From NCBI GenBank assembly GCA_041737355.1, contig JBGSRW010000004.1, forward strand, positions 1 to 57,399: a stretch of 57,399 bases of DNA. The letters are read 5' to 3'. The position numbers and the translations under genes are program-made. Positions 1 through 42,580 of this stretch are shown here, piece after piece (the first letter of the stretch is position 1; the number at the start of each line of letters is the position of its first letter). The notes beneath the pieces are model-generated. The model saw only the letters and a program-made list of their open reading frames with translations. It had not been told where the DNA came from and ran no database searches. Origin of the DNA: Patescibacteria group bacterium (GTDB lineage Bacteria; Patescibacteriota; Patescibacteriia; XYB2-FULL-38-15).

Positions 1-951
1 TCCGGAAAAGTTTCTACGGCAAAAAGCTATATTGAGTCTGCTTTGGTTGGACTGGTTATCGCTCTTACATCATATGTTCTTCTTTATGCTGTTAACCCGA
101 AGTTAGTGGGATTTGAGGCGATGAAGGTGAAGTTTGTGGAAAGAGTCGAAGAACCGGTCGCTTCCTCTGCCGCATCTCTCGCTGAAGATTTACCCGCGGG
201 AGCGCTAACATCAGGAAACCACTCGGCTTTTATTACTCCCGAACAATATAAACTCGCAACAGGCAAAGATATGCCGTCAAAAGATGACATAATCGCGATG
301 ATGGACGAAATCGCGCCGGCGAAAGGTATCGACAAGTGCCTTTTGGATGCAATAGTTGCCAAGGAATCCGGATATAAACCAAATAGGCTTGGACACGATG
401 AAGATGTCGCTAGAGAACAGGTTGGATCGCGAAGAAAATTTATTGATTCTGGAAAAAAATACAGTGGAGCAACTTTCGCGCCGAACGCCAGTCTCTACAC
501 GCAATCTTTCCCAAACGACGACGTCTTCGATCCTCAAAGACCTCCTAATTATGGCTTGGATGTAAGATTTACTCACGGTATCGGCTTAGGCCAAATGACA
601 ATTCTGGACGAAGACCATGACGGGGAGATGGACCGCTGTCCCGATGGAAATATCGGACGCGAGGTTGGAAATACCTGTCTAAACGCGTTAGAATTATTTG
701 ATGCGGAAAAAACGCTCGAAGCCTCAGCAGATTTGATTAAAAAAAAGTTGCAAACAGTGAGTGGCAGCGTCGAAAGACTTTTTTATAAATATGCCGGCCA
801 AGGCTGCAGCGCCAGAGTTTCCCAATGTAAAAAAATGAAAGTATTTGCGGAGTGTAAGGGGGATCAAAATCTTGCCGCCAAAGAACGCGAAGATTGCACG
901 AGTTGGCTGCAGGAACAGGACGCAAATTGCCAAAACAAAGATTTCCGCTAA
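1..951 (+). CDS. Lytic transglycosylase (SLT/GH23, VirB1-like) preceded by a membrane helix; 5' end cut by the window edge
   Basis: Frame 1 is open from base 1 (SGKVSTAKSYIESALVGLVIALTSYVLLYAV...), so the listed TTG start at 43 is an artefact. A hydrophobic helix is followed by a soluble domain with SLT-type motifs AKESGY (catalytic Glu-Ser) and GIGLGQMT (cf. GLMQ). The STAK...GLVI helix resembles the last helix of the pilin-like modules at 52.0-52.4 kb and 54.0-54.4 kb. Confidence 0.6.
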   Translation, partial: SGKVSTAKSYIESALVGLVIALTSYVLLYAVNPKLVGFEAMKVKFVERVEEPVASSAASLAEDLPAGALTSGNHSAFITPEQYKLATGKDMPSKDDIIAMMDEIAPAKGIDKCLLDAIVAKESGYKPNRLGHDEDVAREQVGSRRKFIDSGKKYSGATFAPNASLYTQSFPNDDVFDPQRPPNYGLDVRFTHGIGLGQMTILDEDHDGEMDRCPDGNIGREVGNTCLNALELFDAEKTLEASADLIKKKLQTVSGSVERLFYKYAGQGCSARVSQCKKMKVFAECKGDQNLAAKEREDCTSWLQEQDANCQNKDFR

Positions 952-2366: not shown

Positions 2367-2955
2367 AAAAAGTTTTTACAATCAAAAAACCCTAAAAGTT
2401 GCCAAGCTCCTGCTTGGTAAATTTTTAATAAGAAAAATCGGAAAAAGAATAATCTCCGGAAAAATCGTGGAGACCGAAGCCTATGTCGGACCAAAAGATC
2501 TCGCCTCACACGCCTCTCGGGGAAAAACTCCCCGCACCGCTTTGATGTTTGGCCCACCCGGCTTTTCTTACGTTTACTTAGTTTATGGCCTTAATTATTG
2601 TTTCAATATTGTCACGGAAGGCGAGGATTACCCGGCGGCTGTTCTTATCCGCGCCCTAGAGCCGGCGGAGGGTGTTAAAAGCATGTTTAACCGCCGAGGC
2701 ATTACTTGTACCCCCAATCCCCCGCCAGCCCTCTCAAACGGCCCCGGAAAACTCTGCCAAGCTCTGGGGATAGATAAAACTTTGAATAAGGCGGATTTAA
2801 CCGATGGCGTACTTTGGCTTGAAGACCGGGGAATAAAAATAAACCCCAGAGAAATAATTTCAAAACCGAGAATAGGTGTTGATTACGCCGGTAAATATAA
2901 AAATAAACCCTGGAGATTTTATCTCAAGGGTAATATCTTCGTTTCAAAAAAATAA
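2353..2955 (+). CDS. mpg: DNA-3-methyladenine glycosylase (AAG/Mpg family)
   Basis: Family signature IVETEAYVGPKDLASHA and PGFSYVYLVYGLNYCFN. ATG at 2353 is preferred to the TTG at 2320. It overlaps the radA stop by 14 nt. Confidence 0.85.
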   Translation: MPKIKKSFYNQKTLKVAKLLLGKFLIRKIGKRIISGKIVETEAYVGPKDLASHASRGKTPRTALMFGPPGFSYVYLVYGLNYCFNIVTEGEDYPAAVLIRALEPAEGVKSMFNRRGITCTPNPPPALSNGPGKLCQALGIDKTLNKADLTDGVLWLEDRGIKINPREIISKPRIGVDYAGKYKNKPWRFYLKGNIFVSKK

Positions 2956-5016: not shown

Positions 5017-5043
5017 AATAACCAAGCTTTAACGTCAAGCTAT

Positions 5044-5266: not shown

Positions 5267-5761
5267 CTATATCTTCAGAAAACGACTATAGGATTCCGAC
5301 AACGGTTCGTGTTCCTGGTCGGTATCCTCAATTAAGTATTTCAGCAGGACTTCCCTCACCTTAAGAGGATTCTGATCCAGAAGCGGAACGGAAATCCTTG
5401 ATCTTAGGCCGTTGGGATTAAAATATAAATTTTTAACATCCGGCGGTTCGTAAATAATATAGAATTTGTCGACATCTTTCCATGTATAAAATTTTCCGCC
5501 CACCCCGACGCCGTCTTCGAATATTCCGAAATCAACCTCGTCCGGTTCGCTTATCGAGCGCAAAACGGTAATAACGGCCGCCAAAATTAAAATTACAACG
5601 AATAAAAAGTTCAATGTGTATATCGCGTAAACAACCAGCAGGCCGAAGGCTATCCCCGCCCAAATATACCAACTTTTTCCTCTTTCATATTTTTCGTACT
5701 CGGGTATTCTCCAATTCAAGAGAAGACTTCCCCGGTCCGTTTGTTTTTTTTCTTCCGCCAT
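5267..5761 (-). CDS. Hypothetical membrane protein (two adjacent TM helices plus a C-terminal soluble domain)
   Basis: The listed 223-aa ORF runs over the tRNA-Ser gene and its promoter. I trimmed it to the internal ATG at 5761 (MAEEKKQTDRG...). The hydrophobic segment is WYIWAGIAFGLLVVYAIYTLNFLFVVILILAAVITVL. I recognise no family. Confidence 0.55.
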   Translation of the reverse strand: MAEEKKQTDRGSLLLNWRIPEYEKYERGKSWYIWAGIAFGLLVVYAIYTLNFLFVVILILAAVITVLRSISEPDEVDFGIFEDGVGVGGKFYTWKDVDKFYIIYEPPDVKNLYFNPNGLRSRISVPLLDQNPLKVREVLLKYLIEDTDQEHEPLSESYSRFLKI

Positions 5762-5768
5762 AAATTTA

Positions 5769-5797
5769 TTGACAAAAACGTTTTCCGATATTATAAT
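5769..5797 (+). promoter_or_regulatory. Consensus sigma70-type promoter for the tRNA-Ser pair
   Basis: TTGACA (5769-5774), an exactly 17-nt spacer, then TATAAT (5792-5797). It lies 30 nt upstream of the first tRNA-Ser and is divergent from the CDS starting at 5761. Confidence 0.6.
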
Positions 5798-5827
5798 TTT
5801 GATATAAACTAGAGTTCCGGGGAGCGT

Positions 5828-5921
5828 GGAGAGGTGGCCGAGCGGCTTAAGGCAGCGGTTTGCTAAACCGTTATAGGGTTGAAAAGCCCTATCGAGGGTT
5901 CGAATCCCTCCCTCTCCGCCA
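5828..5921 (+). tRNA. tRNA-Ser (anticodon GCU), CCA encoded
   Basis: GGAGAGGTGGCCGAGCGG... with anticodon loop TTGCTAA, long variable arm TATAGGGTTGAAAAGCCCTATC, T-arm GAGGGTTCGAATCCCTC, acceptor CCTCTCC plus G, then CCA. Confidence 0.9.
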
Positions 5922-5946
5922 CTTTCTATATCAGACAAGCTATAAT

Positions 5947-6041: not shown

Positions 6042-6713
6042 TTACCCTTTTGCCAAAGCTATTCCCCAAACTTCTTTTGCCCCTCCCAGTTTCAATGTTC
6101 TCGCGCACTCTTCCATGGTTGCGCCGGTTGTCAGCACGTCATCCATCAGGATGATTTTTTTATTGGCAATCTTTGAAATATCGCTCACCGAGAAAGCACC
6201 CTTCACATTTTTTCTTCTTTCGCCCTCTTCGAGGTCAACCTGCGACGGGGTTGCCCTTATTCTCTTCAGAACCCCAGCTTCAAGAGGCCAGCCGAACCGG
6301 CGTGAAACTTTTTCGGCAATAATTTCCGCCTGATTGAAACCTCTTTCGAGAAATCTCTTCCTTGAGAGGGGAACGGGAATAAGAATAAATTCTTTTCCCG
6401 GAGGACGGCCTTTTTCGCAAATACCCTCCGCTACCAGATCGCCGAGCGGCAGAGCGAGACTTTCTACAAATTTATATTTCAAAAGGTGAATCGCTCTTTT
6501 TAATATCTCGTTATCATAGGAATAGAATGTCAAAATTCTGTCGAGGGATTCGCCGGATAAGGAATGCCCGTCTGTTCTTATTTTTTTCAAACACTCCCGG
6601 CACAACCACTCCCCTTCTTTTGCGCAGCCGATACATTCAACCGGAAAAAGTATGTCAAAAATTTCTTTTTTCAAGCAGGAAAAAACTTTTTTAATTTTCT
6701 CCCAGATCACCAT
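6042..6713 (-). CDS. comFC: ComF family protein (ComFC-type phosphoribosyltransferase-fold competence protein)
   Basis: N-terminal Cys4 zinc finger (CIGCAKEGEWLCRECLKK) and a C-terminal PRTase motif ILMDDVLTTGATMEE. Confidence 0.85.
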   Translation of the reverse strand: MVIWEKIKKVFSCLKKEIFDILFPVECIGCAKEGEWLCRECLKKIRTDGHSLSGESLDRILTFYSYDNEILKRAIHLLKYKFVESLALPLGDLVAEGICEKGRPPGKEFILIPVPLSRKRFLERGFNQAEIIAEKVSRRFGWPLEAGVLKRIRATPSQVDLEEGERRKNVKGAFSVSDISKIANKKIILMDDVLTTGATMEECARTLKLGGAKEVWGIALAKG

Positions 6714-6731: not shown

Positions 6732-7337
6732 TTAACGGGCCTGTCCCCATGTCGCTTCATCAACCTTCCATTCATCTCCGATTTTTTTAAAAATCAACTC
6801 CAAATCCTGGTAATAAACTTTTTGGTTTCCGCCGAGGTTTCCCGACGTTTCTATCTTCTGGGTTCCGACAACAATTTTTGCCGAACCTGCCCCTTTGTCA
6901 AAGCTTGAAATAGCCGTTGAAATCGCCTTGGTCGTAACCCCGGAGTACGCAGAGGCTCCTGACGCCGTGGTTCCGTTTTTTTTAATAAAATTATCGGCCC
7001 ATTGTTGCAACGCAGGAGTCATTATCGCTTTTAAATCCAAAATATTCTCAAAATTTCCCTGGTTGGAATAACTTCCAAATCTCTCCGCAAAAGCAGCGGC
7101 GAGGCGGGAAAGGTCGGTTTTTATCTTATCCTCATCGGGTATTTTTATTTCCGCTGCCGGCTGATTGGTATTAATTGCCGGCAAAGATACCGGGCTCGTC
7201 TGGCCGGTATTAGTGTTCGTGGGTATCGTCGTTCCTCCGGGAGACGGAAGGTTCGGTCTTATAAGCAGCCAGTAAATAAAGGCCAAAAACAGAAGGAGGA
7301 AGGCTATGACAATGATAATTTTTGTTCTTCGTGACAT
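6732..7337 (-). CDS. Bitopic membrane protein; candidate VirB8-like component (weak)
   Basis: A single N-terminal TM helix (IIIVIAFLLLFLAFIYWLLI), a Pro/Thr/Asn-rich linker and a roughly 120-aa C-terminal domain. It sits immediately downstream of VirB4. The VirB8-like role is inferred only from topology, size and position. Confidence 0.3.
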   Translation of the reverse strand: MSRRTKIIIVIAFLLLFLAFIYWLLIRPNLPSPGGTTIPTNTNTGQTSPVSLPAINTNQPAAEIKIPDEDKIKTDLSRLAAAFAERFGSYSNQGNFENILDLKAIMTPALQQWADNFIKKNGTTASGASAYSGVTTKAISTAISSFDKGAGSAKIVVGTQKIETSGNLGGNQKVYYQDLELIFKKIGDEWKVDEATWGQAR

Positions 7338-7370
7338 AGTAATCTTAATTCAACAAAAAATATTTTTTAT

Positions 7371-9287
7371 TTATTTTCCCGCGCCGCTCTCCGACGCCAT
7401 CTGATCGTCAAATTCTTTTTTAGCCGCTTCTATTTCCAAAAGCTGTTTCGGGTCGGAGGTTATAAGCTGATCCTCGGAATAAGAGGCAACTATTTTTATG
7501 GCGGCATGCTTTGCGCCGGCGAAGAAAATTCCCTCGCCAACCCCGCATTCAAGAAGCAAATATTTCTCACCCTGAGTTAACATGAAGGTTTTTTGCACGA
7601 GATCGATCGATGCAGGCGACTGCTTCAGGAGGAGCTGCAGGGAAGAATTGGTAACGATCGCCTGACCGTAAGGAGAAGTTAAAAAATCGTTAACGTCCTG
7701 GGTAATTGTTGTCACGCCCAAATAATATTTCCGGCAACGTTTCACGAGAGCGAAAATAAATTTCGCGCTATCCTCGTGCTGCATCAGCCACCAAGCCTCA
7801 TCAACCACGAGAATTCTTCTTTTTCTCTCGGAACGAACGACATTCCAGATAAAATTGACGATGTTATAAATGGCAATCGGCCGCAGTTCGTCTTCCAGGT
7901 CCCGGACGCTAAAAATAACCAAAGAGTTTCTTACGTCAATTGTCGTCGGAGAATTCAAAAGGCCGGAAAAAGTTCCTTCCGTATACTTTCTCAGTCTTTC
8001 AACCAAGCTTTCGGCGCCGGTCATTCCTTCCAAAATATTCTGTAAGTCTTTCATCACCGGAGGTTCAACGCCGCTTTTCAGATCGGTATCCGCGGTAATA
8101 TCTTTTTTGGCGTAAGTTTCAATCAAGGCTCTGTCCAAAACCGAGTCTTCCTCCGGAGAAAAAATAAGCCTGCCCCCTTCGCCCGGCCTCGCAAGCATCA
8201 GCCGCAGAAGACCTTTGAGGGTAATGACCGCGCTTCTGATTATATCCTCCGTGTTTACCTCTTCTCCGACCGGACGCGGCAAATCGAAGGGATTGATTTT
8301 TGAATCGGAAGCAAGGGAAATATTTACATAAGCTCCGCCGACCGCGTCGGAAAGATGTTTGTATTCCATTTCCGGATCAATAACCAAAACCTCCACGCCC
8401 ATCATAAGCGAACGCAAAACCTCGAGCTTAATAGCATAACTTTTGCCGGCGCCCGAAGTGGCAAAAACGACCGCGTTGGCATTTTGAAGAGAAAATCTGT
8501 CGAACAAGATCAAGCTGTTATTATGCCTGTTTATACCGTAGAGAATTCCGTTATCCGAAGTAAGCTCAGCCGACATAAAGGGAAAAGAGGAAGCAATCGG
8601 CGAGGAATTCATGTTGAAGGTAATCATCAGTTCGTCATTGCAAAGAGGAAGTGTGGAGTTGAAACCCTGCTCGGACTGATAAAACACCCTCTTGGTATAA
8701 ATAAGTTTAGAACCGAAGATGGACTCGACTTCTTCCGAAGTCTTATCCAACTCTTCCTTGCTCTTGGCGTAAATTGTCACATAGAGAGCGAACTGGAAAA
8801 AATGTTCAATACCCTGAGTCAAATCGTCGCGTAATTGCTCAATATCGCGGAGGGCCGTTTCCCGCAGAGGATCGCGTGGCGCGCCTTTTTCCGCATCGGA
8901 TAGAATCTGGGCTTCAAGGGCTCCAGCTTTCTTTTTCAGTTGTTTTAAAATAATTTCCGCCTTGACCGGATAGAAAAACATCGCCACGTCGAGAGCGGTA
9001 TTCAAATTAATAATTGGAGTAAACCAGCCGACGCTTATATAGCGGGGGTAAGTAATAACAAAAATGGTCCTGACGAATTTATCTCCAAGCAAAACATGCG
9101 ACGGTTCTATTTTCATCGACGCCGGAGCAACCAAGTCCTGAATGCCAACGACGCCTTTACGGTAAATGCGCTCTTCCTCAAGAATAATTTTTTCCGCTTC
9201 AAGCCGCCGTTTCTCTTCCGCGGAAGAAACGGGCGCGACCGCCTGCGGTTTTTCTTTTTTTGTAGCAGCGAAAGGATTGAACGCCAT
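7371..9287 (-). CDS. VirB4/TraE-family type IV secretion ATPase
   Basis: Walker A ATSGAGKSY and Walker B RILVVDEAWWLM. The N-terminal region (GDKFVRTIFVITYPRYISVGWF) is typical of Gram-positive-type VirB4 proteins. It is adjacent to a PrgI-like gene. Confidence 0.85.
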   Translation of the reverse strand: MAFNPFAATKKEKPQAVAPVSSAEEKRRLEAEKIILEEERIYRKGVVGIQDLVAPASMKIEPSHVLLGDKFVRTIFVITYPRYISVGWFTPIINLNTALDVAMFFYPVKAEIILKQLKKKAGALEAQILSDAEKGAPRDPLRETALRDIEQLRDDLTQGIEHFFQFALYVTIYAKSKEELDKTSEEVESIFGSKLIYTKRVFYQSEQGFNSTLPLCNDELMITFNMNSSPIASSFPFMSAELTSDNGILYGINRHNNSLILFDRFSLQNANAVVFATSGAGKSYAIKLEVLRSLMMGVEVLVIDPEMEYKHLSDAVGGAYVNISLASDSKINPFDLPRPVGEEVNTEDIIRSAVITLKGLLRLMLARPGEGGRLIFSPEEDSVLDRALIETYAKKDITADTDLKSGVEPPVMKDLQNILEGMTGAESLVERLRKYTEGTFSGLLNSPTTIDVRNSLVIFSVRDLEDELRPIAIYNIVNFIWNVVRSERKRRILVVDEAWWLMQHEDSAKFIFALVKRCRKYYLGVTTITQDVNDFLTSPYGQAIVTNSSLQLLLKQSPASIDLVQKTFMLTQGEKYLLLECGVGEGIFFAGAKHAAIKIVASYSEDQLITSDPKQLLEIEAAKKEFDDQMASESGAGK

Positions 9288-9304
9288 AAATTAAATTTCT
9301 ATCT

Positions 9305-9985
9305 TTATTCTTCTACCCTGACTTTGCCGATCTCGACCATCTTTTCCGTTTCGGCCAATTCGGGATTATATAAATTATAGAAAAGTTCTATTAAACTTTG
9401 CGTATCAAGAATAACCGAAGTTAGTCCCATGCTTGAAAGAAGCATCTGGACGTGTTCGACTCTGGCAAAAAGATCCCTTCTCCTTTTTTTGAATCTTTCC
9501 GCCCCGAGGCTGATTGCCGTACCAGGACTCAGGACTTCGCCGAATCTCGACCAAAATCCTTTTCTCTTATCGGAAAGCGGATCATAGGGAACGACTACAT
9601 AGAAACGCTTGCTCATAATGTCCCCCATCTCCACCAATTCTTTTATATACTCTCTGTAGTCGGCAATCTGAATTTTCAAAAGTTCGTTTGTTTGTTCTTT
9701 CTCAACCTGCCCGAGCTTACCAAGATAAGCGTCAATATTCAATTTGCGGGACTGGACAACGATCTGGAGAGGAAATTCAAGGGCATTCAAAAAAGAAACA
9801 TAGGCGGCGATAATGGCGTTTTGCTCTTCCTCTGATTTAAGAGCAAAATTTATGCTCGAAACCAAAAGCACGGCCCGCATTGTTCCGTCTTTTAAGACGA
9901 CGCTGTCTTCGCGAACTTCCGCTATATCCAGACGATGTTTTGTTGCTACACCGGGTTTTGGCCCGGCTAACTTTTTGGACTGCAT
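9305..9985 (-). CDS. Hypothetical protein resembling a VirB4/TraC N-terminal domain, without an ATPase domain
   Basis: 226 aa, no TM helix, no P-loop. The pattern LDIAEVREDSVVLKDGTMRAVLLVSSINFALKSEEEQNAII..FLNALEFPLQIVVQS is reminiscent of the N-terminal region of VirB4-family proteins. It lies between the PrgI-like gene and VirB4. Confidence 0.35.
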   Translation of the reverse strand: MQSKKLAGPKPGVATKHRLDIAEVREDSVVLKDGTMRAVLLVSSINFALKSEEEQNAIIAAYVSFLNALEFPLQIVVQSRKLNIDAYLGKLGQVEKEQTNELLKIQIADYREYIKELVEMGDIMSKRFYVVVPYDPLSDKRKGFWSRFGEVLSPGTAISLGAERFKKRRRDLFARVEHVQMLLSSMGLTSVILDTQSLIELFYNLYNPELAETEKMVEIGKVRVEE

Positions 9986-9998
9986 AACGGGTTAAAAA

Positions 9999-10424
9999 TT
10001 ATTCTCCCTTGTAAACTCCGCCTGTATTGACGATCAAGGATAATTCCGCAAGTTTTGTCGCTACAATCGGCTCTTTTATCGGCCGGGGAACAGCTACCTT
10101 AACTTCTTCTTTTTTTAAATACCTTCTGACTTCATCAAGACCAAGCTCCTTGTTCCAGATGCGTAGAGGCGGCCGGCGCAGAGTTTGTAATAAATTAAGA
10201 AGAAAAAAATGGAAAGGCTGTCCGTTGACTTTTATAAAAGCCAGGACAACCCCTAGGCCGAAAATCGGCAAAGCAAAAATCAAAAAATAAATAAAAGTAA
10301 AAAGTTTGTAAAAAATAAACAAAACTATCGCTACCGCCAGAAGAATAATAAATTGCCGCGCCGTTATCGGGCCGATAATCTTGTCTTCCACGTCAATAAA
10401 TTGAGGAATAACAAATTGCTGCAT
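9999..10424 (-). CDS. PrgI family (VirB3-like) small membrane protein
   Basis: The N-terminus MQQFVIPQFIDVEDKIIGPITARQFIILL followed by two TM helices is the characteristic PrgI-family start. It is located directly upstream of the VirB4 genes. Confidence 0.7.
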   Translation of the reverse strand: MQQFVIPQFIDVEDKIIGPITARQFIILLAVAIVLFIFYKLFTFIYFLIFALPIFGLGVVLAFIKVNGQPFHFFLLNLLQTLRRPPLRIWNKELGLDEVRRYLKKEEVKVAVPRPIKEPIVATKLAELSLIVNTGGVYKGE

Positions 10425-10463
10425 GATTTAACTTAAATCTCTAATAATTATAGCATTTTTTCT

Positions 10464-12032
10464 TTAATACCTCAAAGATCTGCTGAGTTTCACGAGGGCC
10501 TGGTATTCCGCCTCGGTAAGAGACGGCTTGCCTGATGAAATCCGGGAAGCGATGACTTGGCTTACCGACGCGCCCTGATTCATGCTTTCCCGGCTTATTT
10601 CAAGATAAAGTTTGTAAACCTCCGATTCCTGCCATGCCTTGATGCCGGCTATTTTTTTTGTAATCGATTCCCTTTCCAGAAGTCTCATTTTTTCCTGAAC
10701 TTTCGCCGACGCTACCTCGGGATTTTGATCCAATCTCCTGAAATCGACCATGGTCATTTCCTTCAATTCCTCAAGCGGCCCGACAAGTTTCGGGACATAG
10801 CGGACGTCCTCCAAGCGCGGCCTCTTGTCGTCAACCGTAACAACCGGGCGCCTGGACGGGGCCGTAGCCGGTTTCAAAATTTGAAAAGGCTTAGGCTCTT
10901 CTCCGGGAGAAACCTTTCCCCTGATCGCCGAGGGAATTTCTTTTATTATTTCCGCCGACGGCTTTATTTCTCCAGCCGGCCGTAGCGGTATTTTTTCCGG
11001 AACAATCGCCGGTTTTGCCGGAGCAATGGTTGAAATTTTTGCCTGCATGCCGGCAGGCGGAGCGATCATTGCAGCCGGAACATCGAGCGGGGCAATCTGC
11101 GCCCTTTTCGTAATTTGCTGCCACCGTTCGTCTATCTTATTTTTAACCTTTGTTAAAACTTCTTCGTTGGCCTTCCCTGTCATTACCCTTTCGCTCTCCA
11201 GGGCCTTTTCTACCGTTGACACGGCTTCTTCTTTGTTTTTTGCTTCCGCCCCGCCGATTATTTTTTTCGCGGCGGCCAGTATTTTGGAAATCTGTTCGGA
11301 CGTAAGAGTGATTCCGGCTGAACCGAAAAATCCGGACAAAGTATCCTGCATTTCAAAGCCGTCCCGAATATCCTTAAGATGCGTCAATAAAATATTTTCC
11401 AATTTTTTTCTTCCTATCTCGTCCAAGTTCACTCCGCTTTCCCCAATAACCGAATCGACCAGCCCGGCTGTTTCCGCCGGTTTCAAGCCGGAAACCTGTT
11501 TCGGTAATTTATCCCGCTTTGCCGAAATTTCCGCCTCGTCCGCCGGAGAAAAAACAAGTTCCGCCACTCCTTTCGGCATCTCGGCTATTTTTGGCTTACG
11601 GCTTTCTGTTTTTACCGCGTTTTTTATCGCCGGACGGACTTCCGTTTTCTTTGTCTCGGTTGCGGCGGCAGTTTCTTTTTCATCCTGCCTCTCTCCCTTC
11701 GGCTTAATCTTTCCGACAAGACCGATTACCAAATCGGCCGCCTCCGGAGTAAAACCCATCCCACCGGAAGGAACTGCTCTAATAAGGGCGCTTTTGGTTT
11801 CAAATTTATCCCTGACATCCTTGAAGTAAGCTTCCAACTCATCGGCAAAACGCGCCTTAAGATTTTCCGCTATCCGCAATCCGCTTTTTTCTATAATTTG
11901 GTCAACTAATTTTTTTTCAACCTTGGCGGAAGTTGCCTTTACCGGCGGAGTGAAATCATAAAACTTGCCGCCTCGTAAAATTTTAAACTTACCGGCCGGA
12001 TCTTTGATAATTATTTCGTCACCCACGGACAT
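10464..12032 (-). CDS. Hypothetical protein, Ala/Lys/Pro/Glu-rich, no TM helix
   Basis: A long intact ORF in the co-directional cluster. It has low-complexity central and Pro-rich segments (APAKPAIVPEKIPLRPAGEIKP). I see no recognisable catalytic motif. Confidence 0.6.
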   Translation of the reverse strand: MSVGDEIIIKDPAGKFKILRGGKFYDFTPPVKATSAKVEKKLVDQIIEKSGLRIAENLKARFADELEAYFKDVRDKFETKSALIRAVPSGGMGFTPEAADLVIGLVGKIKPKGERQDEKETAAATETKKTEVRPAIKNAVKTESRKPKIAEMPKGVAELVFSPADEAEISAKRDKLPKQVSGLKPAETAGLVDSVIGESGVNLDEIGRKKLENILLTHLKDIRDGFEMQDTLSGFFGSAGITLTSEQISKILAAAKKIIGGAEAKNKEEAVSTVEKALESERVMTGKANEEVLTKVKNKIDERWQQITKRAQIAPLDVPAAMIAPPAGMQAKISTIAPAKPAIVPEKIPLRPAGEIKPSAEIIKEIPSAIRGKVSPGEEPKPFQILKPATAPSRRPVVTVDDKRPRLEDVRYVPKLVGPLEELKEMTMVDFRRLDQNPEVASAKVQEKMRLLERESITKKIAGIKAWQESEVYKLYLEISRESMNQGASVSQVIASRISSGKPSLTEAEYQALVKLSRSLRY

Positions 12033-12053
12033 AAACTCTGCTCCAATCTTTTT

Positions 12054-13289
12054 TTACGACCACTTAAATTCTTGTTTTTCCAGATCAAAATAAACCAAAC
12101 CCTGGTATTTTCCGCCCGCACCGTCCCGGGAAAGAATGTTGAATAATTTCATGCCAATCCTTCCTGATTCGTCTTCGCTCAGACGGGCTCTTTCTTTCAA
12201 AACATATTGCAAAAATAAACTTAAATACCGCGGATCTTTCGGACTAAGCTTGAAGCCGGCCAATTCCGCCTTCCCGCTCCCCTCCTTCAAATGAACAACC
12301 ATCATCTCGTTGAATTTTTTTTCTTCGAGCAAGCCGGCCAATTTTCCGCCCTCCGCCATTACCATCAAAACCGCCGACAATCTGTATTTGTTTACCGTCC
12401 GGCCCGGCCCGGGAATAGCCTCGAACAAAATCTCTTCCAGTTTTCCCGATTCTCCGCCCGACTCCTTGGCAATATTTTTCATTTCTGTCTCGATTTTTTT
12501 GGCCTCGGCTGCGTCGCCTCGGTATTTTGCTTCGATTTCATCCTGGATTTCTCCGACCTTCGAAACTCCCTGGGCTTGCTTGACCATGTCTTTGACGTCC
12601 CTTCCGACGCGTTCGGTTATCCCCTCTTCGTAAATGTCAACCTCTCCGTCAACAACGAAAACGGTCGTCTCCTCAATTCCGTCGAGCTCCAAGGAAGATA
12701 ATTTCATTTTTTCGTAAAATTTAAAAAGATAATCGAGTCTTGCCCGGCCTTCACGGCTTAATTTTTTCGCGTTTTCTCCGCTTGTGAGGTATTGCGACAA
12801 TTTCAAAGTTTCAACCCGCCCCGTCCCCAAAACGCTGCGGTAATCAGTCAGCCAATTCTTAACCGTCCCGCGCATTTCTCTTCCGTTGATAATAATTTTT
12901 TCCTCGGTCCAGTCCTGATCGGATACCAAAAGAGCCTCCCTGATTAATTTACGCAAAGTATTTCTCTCCTCAAACTCAGGTAAAGACAAAAGTTTTGCTT
13001 TTACTTTTTCCCAAAGATTATACCCCGGCATTGCCGTGACCGCCGATAAATTATTTTTAATCAGTTCGATAATTTCTCCGGGAGCCAAGCGGGGCAAGGC
13101 GACAAATCTCGCCTTAACAAGCATTTCTTCACAGGCGAGTTCCGCTTCCGGCTGGTCGATTCCCTTAGTAAGGCTGTCTTCAAGAAACCCCGCCAAGAGC
13201 CGGGCCTTATCCGCCAAATCAAAATTAACCGCTTCTTCGGCGTGATACCGGATGGCTTCTAAAGTTTTGGAATTATTCAAATCGAGCAT
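12054..13289 (-). CDS. Hypothetical soluble protein
   Basis: Intact 411-aa ORF, tightly packed with its neighbours. No TM helix and no motif I recognise. Confidence 0.6.
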   Translation of the reverse strand: MLDLNNSKTLEAIRYHAEEAVNFDLADKARLLAGFLEDSLTKGIDQPEAELACEEMLVKARFVALPRLAPGEIIELIKNNLSAVTAMPGYNLWEKVKAKLLSLPEFEERNTLRKLIREALLVSDQDWTEEKIIINGREMRGTVKNWLTDYRSVLGTGRVETLKLSQYLTSGENAKKLSREGRARLDYLFKFYEKMKLSSLELDGIEETTVFVVDGEVDIYEEGITERVGRDVKDMVKQAQGVSKVGEIQDEIEAKYRGDAAEAKKIETEMKNIAKESGGESGKLEEILFEAIPGPGRTVNKYRLSAVLMVMAEGGKLAGLLEEKKFNEMMVVHLKEGSGKAELAGFKLSPKDPRYLSLFLQYVLKERARLSEDESGRIGMKLFNILSRDGAGGKYQGLVYFDLEKQEFKWS

Positions 13290-13294
13290 AAAAG

Positions 13295-14395
13295 TTATTT
13301 TTTTATTTCCCGCCAGACTTCATCCGCCTCATCGGGCCGATTCTTTCTTTCTTCAAGATATTTTTTAAGTCCGGCGGAAAACGATCCGGGCAATCCGAGA
13401 TTAGCCAATTCCCCTTCCGCCGAAGCCAAAAATTTAGCCGCTTCGGGATTGAAATTTTTCCGGGCCAGACTTTTTTCAAAATTAGCCGCGTTAAGCATTA
13501 AAATAATTTTTCCCTCTTCGCCCAAAACAAACTCTCCGCCCCCTCCGGAGGCCCCCTTTTCGCCCGGATTAAAATATCCATAAGCTTCCGGGCCGAAATA
13601 TCTCGCGGCGATTTCCGGTTCTATTTTTTTTATCGCCCAAAGCACGGCCGCAAGATGGTCTTTTGCTTCAAGCTCACGCCAAACCCTGCCCTTTCGGCCG
13701 ACGGAAAAGGCCAGACTCCATTGGTTTTGCGCCGCCGCCATACAGGAAAGATCCTGGGCCAGGGAAAAGGCTTTTTGCTGATATAAAAAATTATCAAAAG
13801 CTCTGTCGCTTAAAATCTCCCGGTCGCCGATAATCATCTCGCCGACAAGTTGGTTTAATCCTAAAAAATCGCTTCGGTAACCGTAATAATTTAAAAATTC
13901 TCCGAGTTTTTCTTTTTCCGCCGCCTTTTTAAGAACGGCGCCCATCCCGGGCAAGTCGCCCTTTCCCGAAAAAATATTAAAATCCCTTGCCAATTCTTCA
14001 ACCGATTCTCCGGTTATTTTTTTCATCGCTTCGGCTTCGTCCTTCCGCCGGGCAAAATCCTCGTCGGTTAAAATCGCTGCCGACTCGGCAATAAGTTCGT
14101 CCAATTCCTTTTCAAATTCTCCGGACGTCCGTTTGGCTTCCGCTTTGCGCCGGGCAACCTCCGCTTTGCGTTCCCCCTCCGGCATATTCAAAAGATTGAG
14201 TTTGTCCTGAGCAAGCTCGAAATTTTGGTCGGCCTGGCTCAATTCGTTTTTCCGCTCGGCCTCGGAAAGAGCGGCTAAGCGGTCGGCTTCGGATAAAAAC
14301 CTAAGCAAGGCCTCTTTTTCCGGCCCGGCCGGAAGATTTGCCACATATTGCTTGAAGCCTTCCGAAACGCTGATTTTTTTATCCTTTTTATCCAT
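13295..14395 (-). CDS. Hypothetical soluble protein with a charged/coiled-coil N-terminal half
   Basis: Intact 366-aa ORF, 5 nt from the next gene. The N-terminal third is Glu/Lys/Arg/Ala-rich. No motif I recognise. Confidence 0.6.
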   Translation of the reverse strand: MDKKDKKISVSEGFKQYVANLPAGPEKEALLRFLSEADRLAALSEAERKNELSQADQNFELAQDKLNLLNMPEGERKAEVARRKAEAKRTSGEFEKELDELIAESAAILTDEDFARRKDEAEAMKKITGESVEELARDFNIFSGKGDLPGMGAVLKKAAEKEKLGEFLNYYGYRSDFLGLNQLVGEMIIGDREILSDRAFDNFLYQQKAFSLAQDLSCMAAAQNQWSLAFSVGRKGRVWRELEAKDHLAAVLWAIKKIEPEIAARYFGPEAYGYFNPGEKGASGGGGEFVLGEEGKIILMLNAANFEKSLARKNFNPEAAKFLASAEGELANLGLPGSFSAGLKKYLEERKNRPDEADEVWREIKK

Positions 14396-14404
14396 AAATA
14401 TTTT

Positions 14405-16828
14405 TTACTCCGTCTTCTTCGCGAGATTTTGGTTGGCGAGAGCCAGGTTCTTTTTAGCCACCAATTCCACCAAGTCTTTCATTTCATCCTCGTCTATTTT
14501 CCCGTCGGCCTGGGCGGCCAATAATTTTTTGAAGAATTCTGTCTCCGAGGCGGCTTTGGCTCCTTCTTTCGCTTTTTTCAGCTGTTCTTCGTAGGGTAAT
14601 TTGAAAAAGCTATTTGCGTCTTCAGCGCTTTTTAACCCCGATGCTTTTTCTATTTTTTTCAATTCAACGTCGAGGTTGTTAACAACGCTCTGGTTATTAT
14701 TGATATCAATATCAATTTCTTTCTGCCGGGTTTCCAAATCAAACCTTCTGTCTCTTTCCGCGGGAGTAAGCGGCCCAACTTTTTCCATATCAGCCAGCCT
14801 CCGAAGCTCTGACTGATTTCTATTTTTTTCCTTGGACAGCTTATCGTTTTTTGTGATTGCATCAGTTCTTCTCTTCGTGGCGTCAGTTTTGGCTTTAGCC
14901 GGATCATCTAATCTCAACTTAACTTTCTCAAGATTGCTTGCATCAACTTTTACCGAATCCTCCAGGGTTCCCCTCCTCATAATCAATTCCCCTTCTCTTT
15001 TTTCCGCTCGCGATACCATTGAACCGTCTGCCTGTTTTTCTTTTTTCATGAGCGAATCAATTCTCTTTCTCTCTTTATCAACATCAATTTCTCCTTTATT
15101 TTGCTGAATCAATTCATTTGTCCGGTCAACTCTTTCCTGGTCGGTCATCGGCCGCTTTCTTTCTTCTTTGGCTACTTGCTCTTCAGCTCTTTCCTTTGCA
15201 ATATCGTTTTTCAAATCAACATCGCTCAACCCCTGGCGGCGGCGGGCCGTATCAATAGAAGACAATTCCTGGTCAACTCCCCTGAGTTCGTTTTGTTTGC
15301 TCCGGACCGCGCCTTCAAGAGATTTTCTTTCGCCCATATCGTCGGAGGCCCTTGCCTCGCCCATAGCCGCGGTTGTCCGCTGCTTTAAAACCTCGGCCTG
15401 GTATGGATCTTCGGCATACATTTTTCCGGCCGCTTTTCCCGCGTAACTGTCGGCAATCCGCTGCATCTTGTCTTTGGCATCCTGTTTACCAAGCATCAAT
15501 CTTCCCCGCTCATAAAGCGACATTTTGGTCATAACACGGGGATCGCCCAAGGCGGCCAAGGTATAACGCCCCTGAGCCAGCCGTTCTGCAACTTTACCCA
15601 TGCCTCTGGCCTCGCGCTGGGATTGGAGGGATTTTCTCCTGTCCTCGGAAATTTTCGCCCTCATTGCCGAGCCGGGCAGGGCAACTCCGGTCCGGGCATA
15701 AGTAATATCAGCCATTTTGTTGAATCCGGTTTTAGCTCCCCATTTCGCTCCCGACTTCGCCCAGTTAAGCGGCGCGGTGCCGGCTTTTCTAACATTGCTT
15801 AAAACCGAATCGGCAAGGCCCGATCCGGCGACTCCCATATCTTTCGCAATCATCAAACCGATTAAAAACATCGCCGTGGCGACAATTACCGAAGATAACT
15901 TTTCCATTGTCCCAAGCGCCCCGACCCCGACTGCCGGTCCGGAGACCGTTGAGGTTCCGACCGTCACACCGACCTGCTCGTTGCCCGTTCCTCCTCCGGC
16001 GACAATCAAAGCCAGCCAGATAAAAAAAGCCAGCATCGGCCCGGTAATAACGTACTTACTGAAATTATCCTGCCATTTTTTTGCCGCCGACTGGCCTTGG
16101 GGAAAGGAAGCCATTAAAAAAGCCAAGGGAGACAAAATTATCAAAATCCAAAGAACAATAATTCTCGCGATCAGCATAACAAGCAAAACTCCGACCGTAG
16201 AAATAGCGATCAGGAGAACAACCAAGCCCAAAAGCAGGGCGGGCAATAGACTAAGGCTGCTGTCCAGCCCTTCGCCTCCCGCCAGGGCGTAAACCTGGTC
16301 AATACCAAAAGCCTGGACAAAATTCGCCCCGGCCGCCGCCTTGAAAGCGTTGACAAAAGTCAGCATGATTACCTGGGAAAAATCAATGACAATCCCGCAG
16401 ATCGTTTTGCTGAAATTAATCAGAACCGCCATCAGCAAAAACTTCGGCAGCAATTTTTTGTAATTGTAGGATTCAACCCGCAAAATCGTGGCAATGGCGA
16501 TAACAAGGAGAATTACCACGAAAAACATATTGGCTATGTCGCGGACAATTACCCAGCCGGTCTGGACCGCCTGGGAATTCAAAAAATTATTGTATTGGCA
16601 AACTTTTACCAACTGCTCGGTCAAGCTCAAAAATAACTGGCCAAGCCAACCGGTTATTGCCTGAAGCAATTTGTTGATAAGCCAGGCGACAGCGTCACCC
16701 GCGCTATCAAGTACCCCGGCGGCAGTAATAGCATACGTCGGCTTGACAACAAAAAAAATCCCCGCGGAAATAACCGAAAACAGCACAAAGCTGAGTTTTC
16801 TTCTTTGAGGATTCAAAAATTTAAACAT
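14405..16828 (-). CDS. Polytopic membrane protein, VirB6/TrbL-like, with a roughly 420-aa charged coiled-coil C-terminal tail
   Basis: An N-terminal signal/TM helix followed by at least 6 hydrophobic helices across residues 1 to about 380. The rest is extremely K/E/R/D-rich (e.g. DIAKERAEEQVAKEERKRPMTDQERVDRTNELIQQNKGEIDVDKERKRIDSLMKKEK). The VirB6 assignment rests on topology and context. Confidence 0.5.
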   Translation of the reverse strand: MFKFLNPQRRKLSFVLFSVISAGIFFVVKPTYAITAAGVLDSAGDAVAWLINKLLQAITGWLGQLFLSLTEQLVKVCQYNNFLNSQAVQTGWVIVRDIANMFFVVILLVIAIATILRVESYNYKKLLPKFLLMAVLINFSKTICGIVIDFSQVIMLTFVNAFKAAAGANFVQAFGIDQVYALAGGEGLDSSLSLLPALLLGLVVLLIAISTVGVLLVMLIARIIVLWILIILSPLAFLMASFPQGQSAAKKWQDNFSKYVITGPMLAFFIWLALIVAGGGTGNEQVGVTVGTSTVSGPAVGVGALGTMEKLSSVIVATAMFLIGLMIAKDMGVAGSGLADSVLSNVRKAGTAPLNWAKSGAKWGAKTGFNKMADITYARTGVALPGSAMRAKISEDRRKSLQSQREARGMGKVAERLAQGRYTLAALGDPRVMTKMSLYERGRLMLGKQDAKDKMQRIADSYAGKAAGKMYAEDPYQAEVLKQRTTAAMGEARASDDMGERKSLEGAVRSKQNELRGVDQELSSIDTARRRQGLSDVDLKNDIAKERAEEQVAKEERKRPMTDQERVDRTNELIQQNKGEIDVDKERKRIDSLMKKEKQADGSMVSRAEKREGELIMRRGTLEDSVKVDASNLEKVKLRLDDPAKAKTDATKRRTDAITKNDKLSKEKNRNQSELRRLADMEKVGPLTPAERDRRFDLETRQKEIDIDINNNQSVVNNLDVELKKIEKASGLKSAEDANSFFKLPYEEQLKKAKEGAKAASETEFFKKLLAAQADGKIDEDEMKDLVELVAKKNLALANQNLAKKTE

Positions 16829-16947
16829 ACTTATCTTAAGTATAGCACAAAAATCGTCTCCGGGCTATTTATAATCTAAATCTCCGGCCTGGGGATATCT
16901 TAAGCTAAAAAATCCCAAAAAAATAGACCGTTTTTTCTTTATTTTAA

Positions 16948-17670
16948 TCAAAAAAGATCAGAAATGGCGCCAAATATATCACCAACCCCCGGAATCAGGG
17001 ACGCTGCCCCAATAACCAATATAACCAAAATAATAAGTCCTCCTAAAAACCCTGCCATGGTGCAACCGATAATTTCAAAAGGGGCAAGAATAAGCCGGAG
17101 GGAATTTTTAACGGTTTCCGTAATAGCCGCTCCCCCGAGCCCTCCGCCGCCCCCTGCCTCTTTTGCTTCCGCGGCTTTGGCTTGGACTTTGGCAGCGCTT
17201 TCCGCGGCCTTGGCGGCAATCATTGTCGCCTTGGCGGTAATCATTCCCAAAATCCCGGCAATAAATAAAATCAAACCGAGCAAAATCAAAGGCACCCCTA
17301 TCACGAGACCGACAAGAGTTATTCCAAAACCCATGCCAATGCTAATCAAAGAGCTTCCGCTCGTCCTGGCAAGCGCCGCGGCGGCATTTTGCGCCTGACT
17401 GGCCATTTTTCCGGTCTCAATTACGGCTTTGGTAGCAACCTTTTTGACCGTCTTCCCGACCATTCTTTTGGCCCGAAGCAGGGCTCCGGCTTTTTTCTGG
17501 GCATCCGGTCCGGAAATTGAATCCGCTCCGGAAAAATCCTCATTCCCCGCTTCTTCCGCCGGCGCCTCCGAGGGAGGCTGGCGCAAGGCCTGAACCCGGC
17601 TTTGCCGAAGAGCGCTTTGAATATTTTTTCCTTTTTCGATTGCCGCCATATAAATACTAAATAAAACCAC
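16948..17670 (-). CDS. Ala-rich multi-TM membrane protein, first gene of the T4SS-like block
   Basis: A soluble N-terminus of about 100 aa, then a TM pair, then an Ala/Lys helix and GGGGGLGG, then another TM pair. The GTG at 17670 has AAGGGGA about 10 nt upstream. The alternative ATG at 17649 has no SD sequence. Confidence 0.55.
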   Translation of the reverse strand: MVLFSIYMAAIEKGKNIQSALRQSRVQALRQPPSEAPAEEAGNEDFSGADSISGPDAQKKAGALLRAKRMVGKTVKKVATKAVIETGKMASQAQNAAAALARTSGSSLISIGMGFGITLVGLVIGVPLILLGLILFIAGILGMITAKATMIAAKAAESAAKVQAKAAEAKEAGGGGGLGGAAITETVKNSLRLILAPFEIIGCTMAGFLGGLIILVILVIGAASLIPGVGDIFGAISDLF

Positions 17671-17697
17671 GGGCTGTTAATCCCCTTTTATTTGTTA

Positions 17698-17756
17698 ATT
17701 ATACCACAGAAAAACCAAGGACGGAACTTGACAAATTCAACAAAACGAGTTAGGGT
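17698..17756. promoter_or_regulatory. Candidate back-to-back divergent promoters
   Basis: Minus strand: an extended -10, TGgTATAAT (17698-17706), upstream of the T4SS-like block. Plus strand: TTGACA (17728-17733), a 17-nt spacer, then TAGGGT (17751-17756), upstream of the PEGA lipoprotein gene. Confidence 0.3.
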
Positions 17757-17880
17757 GGAAGGTGGTCTTGAATCCGGACAAAAGGGCTGAAATAAAACTC
17801 TTTTGTCTGGGCTTAAGGCCCAAAAGCCCGAAGAGGGCTTATAGGAAAAATCCGCCCGAAAGGCGGAAAAGGAGGGTGTG

Positions 17881-18609
17881 ATGGAAAAGGTTCTTTTGAC
17901 GATTGCCACGATCTTCGCGGCTGGCTTCCTTGCCGGCTGCCCGGACGACGACTGCAACGACTGCAGCTGCGATCCGTCGCTTTGCGACGGAGGCGGCGAT
18001 GCCGACGCGGACGCGGATTCGGACGGCGACGTGCCGCCCCAGTACGGCAACCTCACCGTGACCTCGACCCCGCTCCAGGGCGCCGCGATCGAACTCGACG
18101 GCGACCCGAGCGGCCAGGTTACGGACCATTTGTTCGAAAATCTCGTGACGGGCGCGCATTCCGTACTCCTTTCGCTTGCCGGCCGGCTCGTGGTCTCCGA
18201 TGCCGGAGAACTCGGCCAGCCGACCGAAGTGAATCTAGCCACGGAAGGCACGGCCGTCAACATCGTGCTGTACTACGACCTTACCGGAAGGTGGAAGCAG
18301 GTAGAATCAAACGGAGCGCCTATCGACGGCCCGGAATACGACATGGAGATGGTGCACAGAAACACCGTCCCCTCCGGGATTTCTCCCACGAACGCCTGTC
18401 CGGAAACTTCGGTGGTCGTTCACGGGTTCGATCCCGCGAACTTCCTCTGCGTCGAAGCCGACGAAACTCTCTCTCTCTGCAAAACCCATGCCAGCGAGTG
18501 CGGAGACCTCTCGATTGAGGGCCGCATCCTTGACAACGGCAGACGGGTAGAATACACCAAGCACCAGCTCGGTGTCGATTACTCGGCCGTTTTCACGAAA
18601 ATGGACTGA
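17881..18609 (+). CDS. PEGA-domain lipoprotein (GC-rich, compositionally foreign)
   Basis: GGAGG lies 5 nt upstream of the ATG at 17881. Signal peptide with lipobox FLAGC, acidic linker DGGGDADADADSDGD, and a PEGA-like segment GNLTVTSTPLQGAAIELDGDPSGQVTDHLFENLVTGAHSVLL. Codon third positions are overwhelmingly G/C, unlike all neighbouring genes. Confidence 0.75.
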   Translation: MEKVLLTIATIFAAGFLAGCPDDDCNDCSCDPSLCDGGGDADADADSDGDVPPQYGNLTVTSTPLQGAAIELDGDPSGQVTDHLFENLVTGAHSVLLSLAGRLVVSDAGELGQPTEVNLATEGTAVNIVLYYDLTGRWKQVESNGAPIDGPEYDMEMVHRNTVPSGISPTNACPETSVVVHGFDPANFLCVEADETLSLCKTHASECGDLSIEGRILDNGRRVEYTKHQLGVDYSAVFTKMD

Positions 18610-18634
18610 CGCGTCAGTTCAAAAAAACAACGCA

Positions 18635-18673
18635 CCCCGTGGATCGCGAGGAACCACGGGGTTTTTTTATTTT
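18635..18673. terminator. Bidirectional intrinsic terminator between convergent genes
   Basis: Stem CCCCGTGG (18635-18642) pairs with CCACGGGG (18654-18661) around an 11-nt loop, followed by TTTTTTTATTTT. On the other strand the hairpin is followed by TGCGTTGTTTTTTT. It lies between the stops at 18609 (+) and 18690 (-). Confidence 0.7.
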
Positions 18674-18689
18674 AAAATTTTTATTCAAT

Positions 18690-41864: not shown

Positions 41865-41899
41865 ATGCCAAATTCAAAAAAATTAATTTACTTCGGAAA

Positions 41900-42562: not shown

Positions 42563-42580
42563 ATTATTAATTACTAATTT

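Follow-up and report, generated by a model that had tools for sequence, protein, structure and literature searches.

Gene Content of the Locus

The window analysed here, i.e., the 57,399 nucleotides at positions 1–57,399 (forward strand) of contig JBGSRW010000004.1 from a Patescibacteria group bacterium (XYB2-FULL-38-15; GenBank assembly GCA_041737355.1), carries at 6732–17670 a string of genes that, as read from sequence, encodes the cytoplasmic-membrane core of a monoderm MPF_FATA-like type IV secretion system (T4SS). An earlier reading of the same DNA, made without database searches (hereafter the original prediction), had described nine co-directional, tightly packed genes here, and the open reading frame (ORF) listing returns exactly these limits for nine minus-strand ORFs, all intact and closely spaced (intergenic gaps, from the 17670 end downward, of 119, 9, 5, 21, 39, 13, 17, and 33 bp). 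From first gene to last they encode a 240-aa polytopic membrane protein, a VirB6/TrbL-like protein, three soluble proteins of 366, 411, and 522 aa, a PrgI/VirB3-like protein, a TrsD-like protein, a VirB4 ATPase, and a VirB8-like protein. A tenth co-directional gene, lying 18 bp 3′ of the VirB8-like gene and missed by the original prediction, is part of the same tight string; it encodes ComFC, a ComF-family phosphoribosyltransferase with a zinc ribbon (6042–6713, minus strand; Pfam Pribosyltran and DZR_2; NCBIfam comF 1.1e-31, below cut-off). In front of the first gene's GTG start lie a GGGGA ribosome-binding site and a candidate extended −10 element (TGgTATAAT, 17706–17698), which is promoter-like but not proof of a promoter.

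The VirB4 ATPase and the TrsD-Like Protein

The assignment of the gene at 7371–9287 (minus strand) to the VirB4 ATPases, already made in the original prediction, is borne out by several signals. The protein matches Pfam P-loop_TraG (1.7e-27) together with AAA_10 and DUF87, exceeds the NCBIfam conju_CD1110 cut-off (332.8 against 325 bits, with lower scores of 255, 184, and 118 bits for VirB4_plasma, TraC-F, and VirB4_CagE, respectively), and carries a Walker A motif (ATSGAGKS) at residue 276 and a Walker B motif (ILVVDE) at residue 492; its family profile also retrieves the VirB4 C-terminal domain in the PDB (4ag5, E = 1e-56). It is 25% identical to PrgJ of pCF10 over 559 aa and 72–97% identical to proteins of Falkowbacteria, Uhrbacteria, and Magasanikbacteria, and its putative placement in the Patescibacteria VirB4 clade draws on this similarity and on the fact that its best profile is the MPF_FATA-type CD1110. 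The match covers positions 176–729 of the 752-position CD1110 profile, and since the alignment begins only at 176, the protein is without the first ~175 profile positions.

Next to virB4, as in Patescibacteria-clade MPF_FATA-like T4SS, stands the gene of a 226-aa TrsD/TraD-like protein (9305–9985, minus strand) in which a motif search finds no P-loop. It aligns with NCBIfam TrsD (E = 1.1e-6), with the N-terminal part of VirB4_plasma (positions 110–233; 1.4e-9), and with positions 20–104 of CD1110 (E = 0.0067), in each case below cut-off, and its orthologues carry the precomputed Pfam family PF26593 (TraC-like). By tblastn, homologues occur on 149 plasmids of Firmicutes, Actinobacteria, and haloarchaea; on Geobacillus pLW1071 (typed conjugative) and Clostridium perfringens pJFP838A, the gene sits between the PrgI-like and VirB4 genes. 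It represents the split-VirB4 layout familiar from pGO1-type systems. Judged by these profiles, the window protein is a putative separately encoded counterpart of the domain at the very N-terminus of long VirB4 proteins, in agreement with the P-loop-less, VirB4-N-domain-like character first ascribed to it. A profile search of the PDB with the 226-aa family gave no match. We also considered whether this family might be a duplication of the VirB4 N-domain; an hhalign comparison with the VirB4 family of the window came back empty, so that the link to the VirB4 N-domain comes solely from the NCBIfam profiles and the plasmid synteny.

Membrane Partners of VirB4

The small membrane protein encoded at 9999–10424 (minus strand) is PrgI/VirB3-like, as proposed earlier, scoring 39.7 bits (7.3e-10) against Pfam PF12666, for which the gathering score is 27. 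The 807-aa protein encoded at 14405–16828 (minus strand) is predicted by a transmembrane (TM) scan to have ~7 TM segments within residues 1–345, followed by a 460-aa tail in which 39% of residues are charged. A Pfam search with the window protein gave no match, whereas 12 of 59 orthologues match TrbL/VirB6 (best 2.7e-6); when 30 reference T4SS proteins are searched with the family profile, the top match is a Geobacillus pLW1071 “type IV secretion system protein,” at a weak E = 0.013. This evidence, transitive through the orthologues, together with the ~7 TM segments, points to a putative “extended VirB6” and upholds the earlier VirB6/TrbL-like call.

For the 201-aa bitopic protein encoded at 6732–7337 (minus strand), the original prediction had raised a VirB8-like identity as a possibility. 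The AlphaFold2 (AF2) model (mean predicted local distance difference test, pLDDT, 86) has an N-terminal TM helix (residues 3–25), a linker, and an alpha+beta domain (68–197) shaped as a cone of three helices and four long strands, i.e., NTF2-like. With Foldseek, the top nine PDB matches are all VirB8 proteins (CagV at 1.8e-4, PrgL at 6.3e-4, TraE, and Rickettsia VirB8 among them), with target-normalised TM-scores of 0.54–0.70; at the sequence level, the family profile finds PrgL with E = 3.6e-7 in the 30-protein set and E = 0.9 against the whole PDB. The modelled protein thus appears to fit the VirB8 family, being bitopic with a predicted extracytoplasmic NTF2-like domain.

Conservation of the Gene String and Its Setting

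The original prediction had proposed comparing the nine-gene order across related genomes. A scan of one genome per GTDB species yielded 80 related loci, each taken with up to 10 kb of flank on either side, and the order is conserved across them: VirB6-like, the 411- and 522-aa families, PrgI, TrsD-like, VirB4, VirB8-like, and ComFC recur with median gaps of 5–29 bp. The TrsD-like protein is present in all 80 loci, PrgI in 79, the VirB8-like protein in 72, and the VirB6-like protein in 59–61. ComFC lies downstream of the VirB8-like gene in 60–67 of the 80 loci (median gap 16 bp; 50 of 60 gaps ≤100 bp). The locus records are titled Falkowbacteria, Uhrbacteria, Magasanikbacteria—all three of which we place in the ABY1 class—or unclassified Patescibacteria.

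The flanks in these loci consist of housekeeping and DNA-repair genes, consistent with the earlier view of a block set among core chromosomal genes. Within the flank fetched, 29 of the 80 loci contain RecG and 28 contain RadA; in the window, RadA (978–2366, plus strand), MPG glycosylase (2320–2955, plus strand), and RecG (2956–5025, minus strand) were identified by Pfam, and RecG and RadA lie within 6 kb of the T4SS genes. Other neighbours include MPG, DsbA-like proteins, and M23 peptidases (adjacent in 14 loci), with DprA and topoisomerase I in single loci.

This arrangement corresponds closely to published descriptions. Patescibacteria VirB4 proteins form a monophyletic clade nested in MPF_FATA and associated with TrsD, PrgI/VirB3, VirB6, and VirB2-like pilins; within the phylum, VirB8 homologues are almost confined to ABY1, relaxases are almost absent, and ABY1 T4SS loci commonly carry comF, recG, and radA (Quinonero-Coronel et al., 2025; PMC12102498). 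The window shows this ABY1 layout, with comF, recG, and radA co-located and a VirB8 protein detectable. We put at roughly 80% the probability that the block is a chromosomal, vertically inherited Patescibacteria T4SS in ABY1-class layout that is used at host contact.

Three further features of the related loci were recorded in passing. Genes for a PfkB kinase, adenosylhomocysteine hydrolase, S-adenosylmethionine synthetase, riboflavin synthase, and lumazine synthase are wedged between the VirB6-like and 522-family genes, as a full set in L030, L031, and L045 and as subsets in L002, L023, L034, L055, and L067. Genes of PF05635 (“23S rRNA-intervening sequence protein”) are inserted at variable sites in related strings (L004:9553-9921, L060:6456-6833, and others), including the TrsD-like/VirB4 and VirB4/VirB8-like junctions, which suggests a mobile small gene. 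Lastly, many GTDB and ENA “binchicken” metagenome-assembled genome records that carry a Patescibacteria T4SS are titled “uncultured Gammaproteobacteria bacterium” (L006–L009 and others), with single records titled Methylomirabilis and Binatia; these titles look like taxonomic mislabelling.

Evidence Against a Mobile Element

Since core genes of the string are homologous to plasmid conjugation genes of Firmicutes and archaea, and three tRNA genes—classic integration sites of integrative and conjugative elements (ICEs)—adjoin ComFC, the block could in principle be the remnant of an ICE that has lost its relaxase, type IV coupling protein (T4CP), and integrase. The original prediction had seen no VirD4, relaxase, or integrase gene in the window and had regarded such genes flanking homologous blocks as the sign of a decayed ICE. 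Pfam finds no T4CP, relaxase, or integrase family among window ORFs of at least 150 aa, and neither the window nor any of the 80 loci gives a tblastn match to the pCF10 coupling protein PcfC and relaxase PcfG, to an FtsK-like T4CP of Geobacillus, to a Rep-relaxase, or to the integrase of Tn916. Despite the adjacent tRNA genes, no att-like repeats of the tRNA ends occur at the other border of the block. The 57-kb window thus contains no detected relaxase, T4CP, integrase, or att site of the kind that defines a conjugative T4SS or ICE, and with the searches negative and no att-like repeat present, we reject the decayed-ICE reading, which we consider very improbable.

Several other observations speak the same way: the block has the same GC content as its flanks (0.44–0.49) and forms no compositional island; its genes are intact and tightly spaced; VirB4 is strongly constrained (72–97% identity); order and chromosomal context are shared by 80 species-level genomes; and housekeeping genes are interleaved in some of the loci. 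The single ancient acquisition from monoderms that has been proposed for the system (PMC12102498) is, moreover, domestication rather than decay. A chromosomal apparatus, as the original prediction had concluded, is therefore better supported by the housekeeping flanks and by the lack of detectable relaxase, VirD4, and integrase genes in the 80 loci than is a conjugative element.

Soluble Proteins of the String and the Question of Protein Export

The three soluble proteins, which the original prediction could not place, have no Pfam, NCBIfam, or PDB match, and all are without a signal peptide. For the basic 522-aa protein (10464–12032, minus strand), the AF2 model (mean pLDDT 73.5) comprises a small beta unit, two similar helical modules, one long helix, a disordered Pro-rich linker (~310–418), and a conserved, very confidently predicted C-terminal helical domain (419–521; pLDDT >95); neither Foldseek against PDB and BFVD nor a PDB sequence profile search gave a credible match. 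Word search finds 42 homologues, all unannotated, and the family stands directly upstream of PrgI in 74–76 of the 80 loci at 23–50% identity. The acidic 411-aa protein (12054–13289, minus strand) belongs to a widespread uncharacterised family of 1121 representative clusters at E ≤ 1e-3 (584 at E ≤ 1e-10), in which 51 scanned members gave no Pfam match and the family profile gave no PDB match; distant homologues (24% identity) fill the same slot in other T4SS loci, between the VirB6-like and 522-family genes. The two families were merged in clustering, and a paralogous relation was considered and dropped, as neither BLAST nor hhalign relates the two significantly (all that emerged was a 29-column motif, at 7% probability).

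The acidic 366-aa protein (13295–14395, minus strand; N-terminal half coiled-coil) is narrower in distribution, with homologues only in the closest relatives (L001, L004), i.e., 2–3 of the 80 loci. It is 42% identical to residues 14–352 of a 752-aa protein (P0237) in which the 366- and 411-aa proteins are a single polypeptide, and this fusion provides a Rosetta-stone link between the two, whose genes lie here 5 bp apart in different frames; alignment coordinates suggest that the 769-aa P0239 is the same fusion.

The 522- and 411-aa families are thus conserved, position-fixed members of the cluster. The idea that the soluble proteins are lineage-specific parts of the apparatus, put forward in the original prediction, fits the fixed membership of these two families, although that prediction missed that they are conserved and not idiosyncratic. 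The simplest reading of the 522-aa and 411-aa families, and with them the 366-aa protein, is as accessory components of the machine that are cytoplasmic and lineage-specific.

The same proteins figure differently if the T4SS delivers proteins to the host bacterium, by injection into it or by release onto it, with the 366-, 411-, and 522-aa proteins as substrates or chaperones. This reading gains from the lack of a signal peptide in all three, from the long disordered linkers of the 522-aa protein, and from divergence far faster than that of the core (23–50% identity for the 522-aa family, against 72–93% for VirB4; presence in so few loci for the 366-aa protein). Like the window, the Southlakia T4SS is without coupling protein and relaxase, and its authors suggest protein export or another role (PMC10633639). 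Known effector translocators, however, usually need a T4CP or Sec-dependent loading, neither of which is evident here, and no toxin, enzyme, or immunity signature was found in the soluble proteins. As the 522- and 411-aa families keep a fixed position and a conserved, well-folded C-terminal domain, they fit structural parts better than effectors. We regard effector export as possible but doubtful.

The first gene of the string (16948–17670, minus strand) encodes an Ala/Gly-rich 240-aa protein with two hydrophobic hairpins (TM scan), for which no Pfam or NCBIfam family rises above noise and homologues occur only in the closest relatives L001 and L002. A VirB2-like pilin identity was rejected for lack of evidence, with Pfam and hhalign against the T4SS_pilin-domain alignment both negative.

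Pilin-Domain and Giant Surface Proteins

Within the gene string no VirB2-like pilin domain was found; the T4SS_pilin domains of the window all reside in larger proteins encoded elsewhere. A 639-aa surface protein (52446–54365, minus strand; Pfam) combines a signal peptide, a T4SS_pilin domain (PF18895, 2e-8, above gathering score), a poly-Gly stretch, and an immunoglobulin (Ig)-like domain (Big_5). A 3030-aa surface protein (43333–52425, minus strand; Pfam) likewise has a signal peptide, a pilin-like two-helix head (T4SS_pilin at 21.3 bits, below the gathering score of 26.6), poly-Gly, and Ig-like arrays (Big_5, Big_7, TIG, and DUF4215), and its N-terminus aligns by eye with that of the 639-aa protein. 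Both proteins are probably associated with the T4SS.

At the window edge, directly upstream of RadA, positions 1–948 (plus strand) encode the C-terminal 316 aa of a ~580-aa, Cys-rich protein with a T4SS_pilin domain mid-protein, as seen from alignment with a homologue: the fragment is 83.5% identical to residues 269–583 of L003:11033-12784(−), which itself matches T4SS_pilin at E = 1.8e-5, its 25.2 bits falling short of the gathering score of 26.6. Among neighbours outside the core in the 80 loci, homologues of this protein make up the largest cluster. Faint matches to a VirB1-like SLT domain in it (E = 0.017 and 0.17) are not claimed. Because T4SS_pilin-domain proteins are encoded in the window, the “minimal” module of the original prediction understates the system. 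No discussion of pilin heads fused to larger proteins was found in PMC12102498. In related loci, the small ORFs that precede the VirB6-like gene were considered as pilin arrays and set aside, since most of those read are antisense shadows of genes on the opposite strand; neither TrbC nor T4SS_pilin is among the Pfam families listed for them.

These proteins raise the question of whether the VirB4 core only assembles and displays pilin-domain and giant Ig-like proteins, with nothing translocated. Such a role would suit the T4SS_pilin domains that head the 639- and 3030-aa proteins and lie embedded in the ~580-aa protein beside RadA, the rank of pilin-domain proteins as the commonest non-core neighbour in related loci, and the essentiality of pilin arrays in Southlakia (PMC10633639). 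Yet the pilin-domain genes lie 26–45 kb from VirB4 and outside the operon, the pilin matches of the 3030-aa protein and of relatives of the ~580-aa protein fall below the Pfam gathering score, type IV pili are held mainly responsible for adhesion in Saccharibacteria (PMC12857230), and display would leave the conserved coupling to ComFC and the cytoplasmic partners unexplained. We consider display without translocation distinctly unlikely.

Directly upstream of the 3030-aa protein, three small tandem membrane-anchored proteins of 327, 220, and 246 aa are encoded (40881–43321, minus strand). Bacterial TSP3 calcium-binding repeats abound in two of them, whereas the third has a faint TSP3 match only.

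Proposed Function and Its Alternatives

For the chromosomal T4SS identified here, we propose the following working model. VirB4 would form a hexamer, for which the TrsD-like protein would provide the N-domain in trans; it would dock on PrgI, VirB6, and VirB8, and so docked would power the assembly of an envelope-spanning conduit; VirB4 would probably also build a VirB2-type fibre from the T4SS_pilin-domain proteins of the window. The machine would act at contact with a host bacterium, not in conjugation, and incoming DNA would be handled by ComFC (taken as co-transcribed) and by the neighbouring RecG and RadA. Host contact or the traffic of nucleic acids is the probable role of the system, and not the transfer of plasmids. 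As to the substrate, our tentative preference, held at somewhat less than even odds, is nucleic acid taken up from the host or the surroundings, with effector export as the main alternative.

Studies of other Patescibacteria inform this model in both directions. In Southlakia, T4SS genes are essential for epibiotic growth by transposon sequencing (Tn-seq; Wang et al., 2023; PMC10633639), a finding restated in a 2025 review, which adds that comEC is dispensable there (PMC12857230). A 2026 preprint describes tubular structures, possibly T4SS pili, at a parasite–host interface where host RNA is acquired (bioRxiv 10.64898/2026.06.21.733656).

Several points weigh against the identification or against nucleic-acid import as its function. 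On the side of function, the Southlakia T4SS is essential whereas comEC is dispensable, and DNA uptake through ComEC is therefore not what makes the T4SS essential there (PMC12857230); in most other classes, the T4SS lies near dnaA/dnaN and not near competence genes (PMC12102498); and ComEC and ComFA are absent from the window. Given the Southlakia comEC result and the different genomic context in other classes, the idea of uptake should not be generalised. On the side of identity, the VirB6 call leans on orthologues, the window protein itself being without a match; the Foldseek E-values for VirB8 are modest (~1e-4), with other NTF2-fold proteins close behind; and the TrsD-like scores lie under the NCBIfam cut-offs, with the hhalign comparison to the window's VirB4 family empty. 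A T4CP or relaxase could also be encoded elsewhere in the genome, as the view here is of 57 kb and VirD4 homologues lie far from virB4 in many genomes (PMC12102498).

A bolder combination of these ideas, which we think unlikely when taken as a whole, would make the 522-, 411-, and 366-aa proteins, encoded between VirB6 and VirB3, a cytoplasmic platform specific to the lineage that replaces the coupling protein and links the channel to ComFC, RecG, and RadA in an import-direction T4SS, with the pilin-headed giant proteins as an undescribed T4SS adhesive fibre. If this were true, the T4SS would supply the epibiont with nucleic acid from its host.

Systems of this kind have been published before, a point missed by the original prediction, and the recognition of one here is a correct independent rediscovery, as PMC12102498 and PMC10633639 between them describe the system and the ABY1 layout. 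The locus is a clean ABY1 example and no new kind of system. It nonetheless concerns a machine that is widespread across the Patescibacteria, a host-dependent group comprising a large share of bacterial diversity, and without which epibiotic growth fails in the single species in which this was tested. An identifiable VirB8-fold protein, two position-fixed soluble families, and a ComFC gene co-oriented within ~20 bp are useful handles for tests of nucleic-acid versus protein transport, and the remaining interest lies in the two structurally unmatched soluble families, the 366/411 fusion, and the pilin-headed giant proteins.

Flanking Genes

Beyond the first gene of the string, the plus-strand gene at 17878–18609 encodes a 243-aa lipoprotein, recognised by reading its LAGC lipobox in the sequence, and separates the string from the gene of a 2968-aa secreted giant protein (18690–27596, minus strand). 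The lipoprotein gene has a GC content of ~54%, and its product has an Asp/Cys-rich start after the lipobox and no Pfam family. As this gene occupies 17878–18609, the ORF at 17688–18263 (minus strand) was rejected as a mere antisense shadow of it. A hairpin at 18635–18651 looks like a terminator common to the lipoprotein and giant genes, and Rfam gave no non-coding RNA in the 1-kb gap at 17670–18690.

For the 2968-aa protein, CBM_4_9 is the only Pfam match and the C-terminus is Cys-rich; homologues of its middle part and Cys-rich C-terminal part lie upstream of the VirB6-like gene in 18–24 of the 80 loci. It may be a T4SS-associated surface protein or substrate, its membership being uncertain. 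Upstream of its gene, 27635–28381 encodes a 248-aa protein with Asp-rich motifs, TSP3 being absent from its Pfam matches.

On the ComFC side, the mechanical 223-aa ORF at 5267–5938 (minus strand) overlaps tRNA-Ser on the opposite strand (5828–5921, plus strand). The real start of this DUF5673 gene is most likely an internal ATG, which would give a 164-aa product (5267–5761) matching its orthologues.

Comparison with Known Systems

The closest counterparts are the Patescibacteria-clade T4SS (PMC12102498; Southlakia epibionticum SEML1_0006-0019), which the locus resembles in its chromosomal location and Patescibacteria-like VirB4, in the TrsD-like, PrgI/VirB3, and VirB6-like genes beside virB4, in the VirB8-like protein reported almost only in ABY1, in having no relaxase or T4CP nearby and VirB2-like pilin domains in the genome, and, for the ABY1 layout, in a neighbourhood with comF, recG, and radA (and ksgA). 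It differs in having no tandem small pilin genes in the operon, the pilin domains lying instead in the ~580-, 639-, and 3030-aa proteins far from virB4. A search of the window for a VirB1-like hydrolase was negative, although 14 related loci have an M23 peptidase next to the string. The 522- and 411-aa families were not found named in the portions of this literature that we consulted.

With conjugative T4SS of the MPF_FATA type (pCF10 Prg/Pcf, pGO1 Trs, pLW1071), the locus shares the order VirB3-like, TrsD-like, VirB4, a VirB4 score above the CD1110 cut-off, a PrgL-related VirB8 fold, and a polytopic VirB6-like protein. In contrast to these systems, no T4CP (PcfC/FtsK-like), relaxase, genes for oriT processing, PrgK-type hydrolase, or PrgB-type adhesin was found in the window, the locus is chromosomal and vertically inherited, and its extra soluble proteins are without counterpart among 30 reference Prg, Pcf, and pLW1071 proteins.

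A third comparison is with the DNA-uptake systems Helicobacter pylori ComB and archaeal Ced. VirB4 matches CedB weakly (E = 5e-14; 52 bits, the cut-off being 700), and CedA-like proteins were not identified. ComB, for its part, operates across an outer membrane, a structure that Patescibacteria have been proposed to be without (PMC12102498). Both nevertheless resemble the machine described here in being built around a VirB4-family ATPase without relaxase or T4CP and in being linked to DNA import—a link that is here genomic only, known from the genes alone, with ComFC in the operon and RecG and RadA adjacent.

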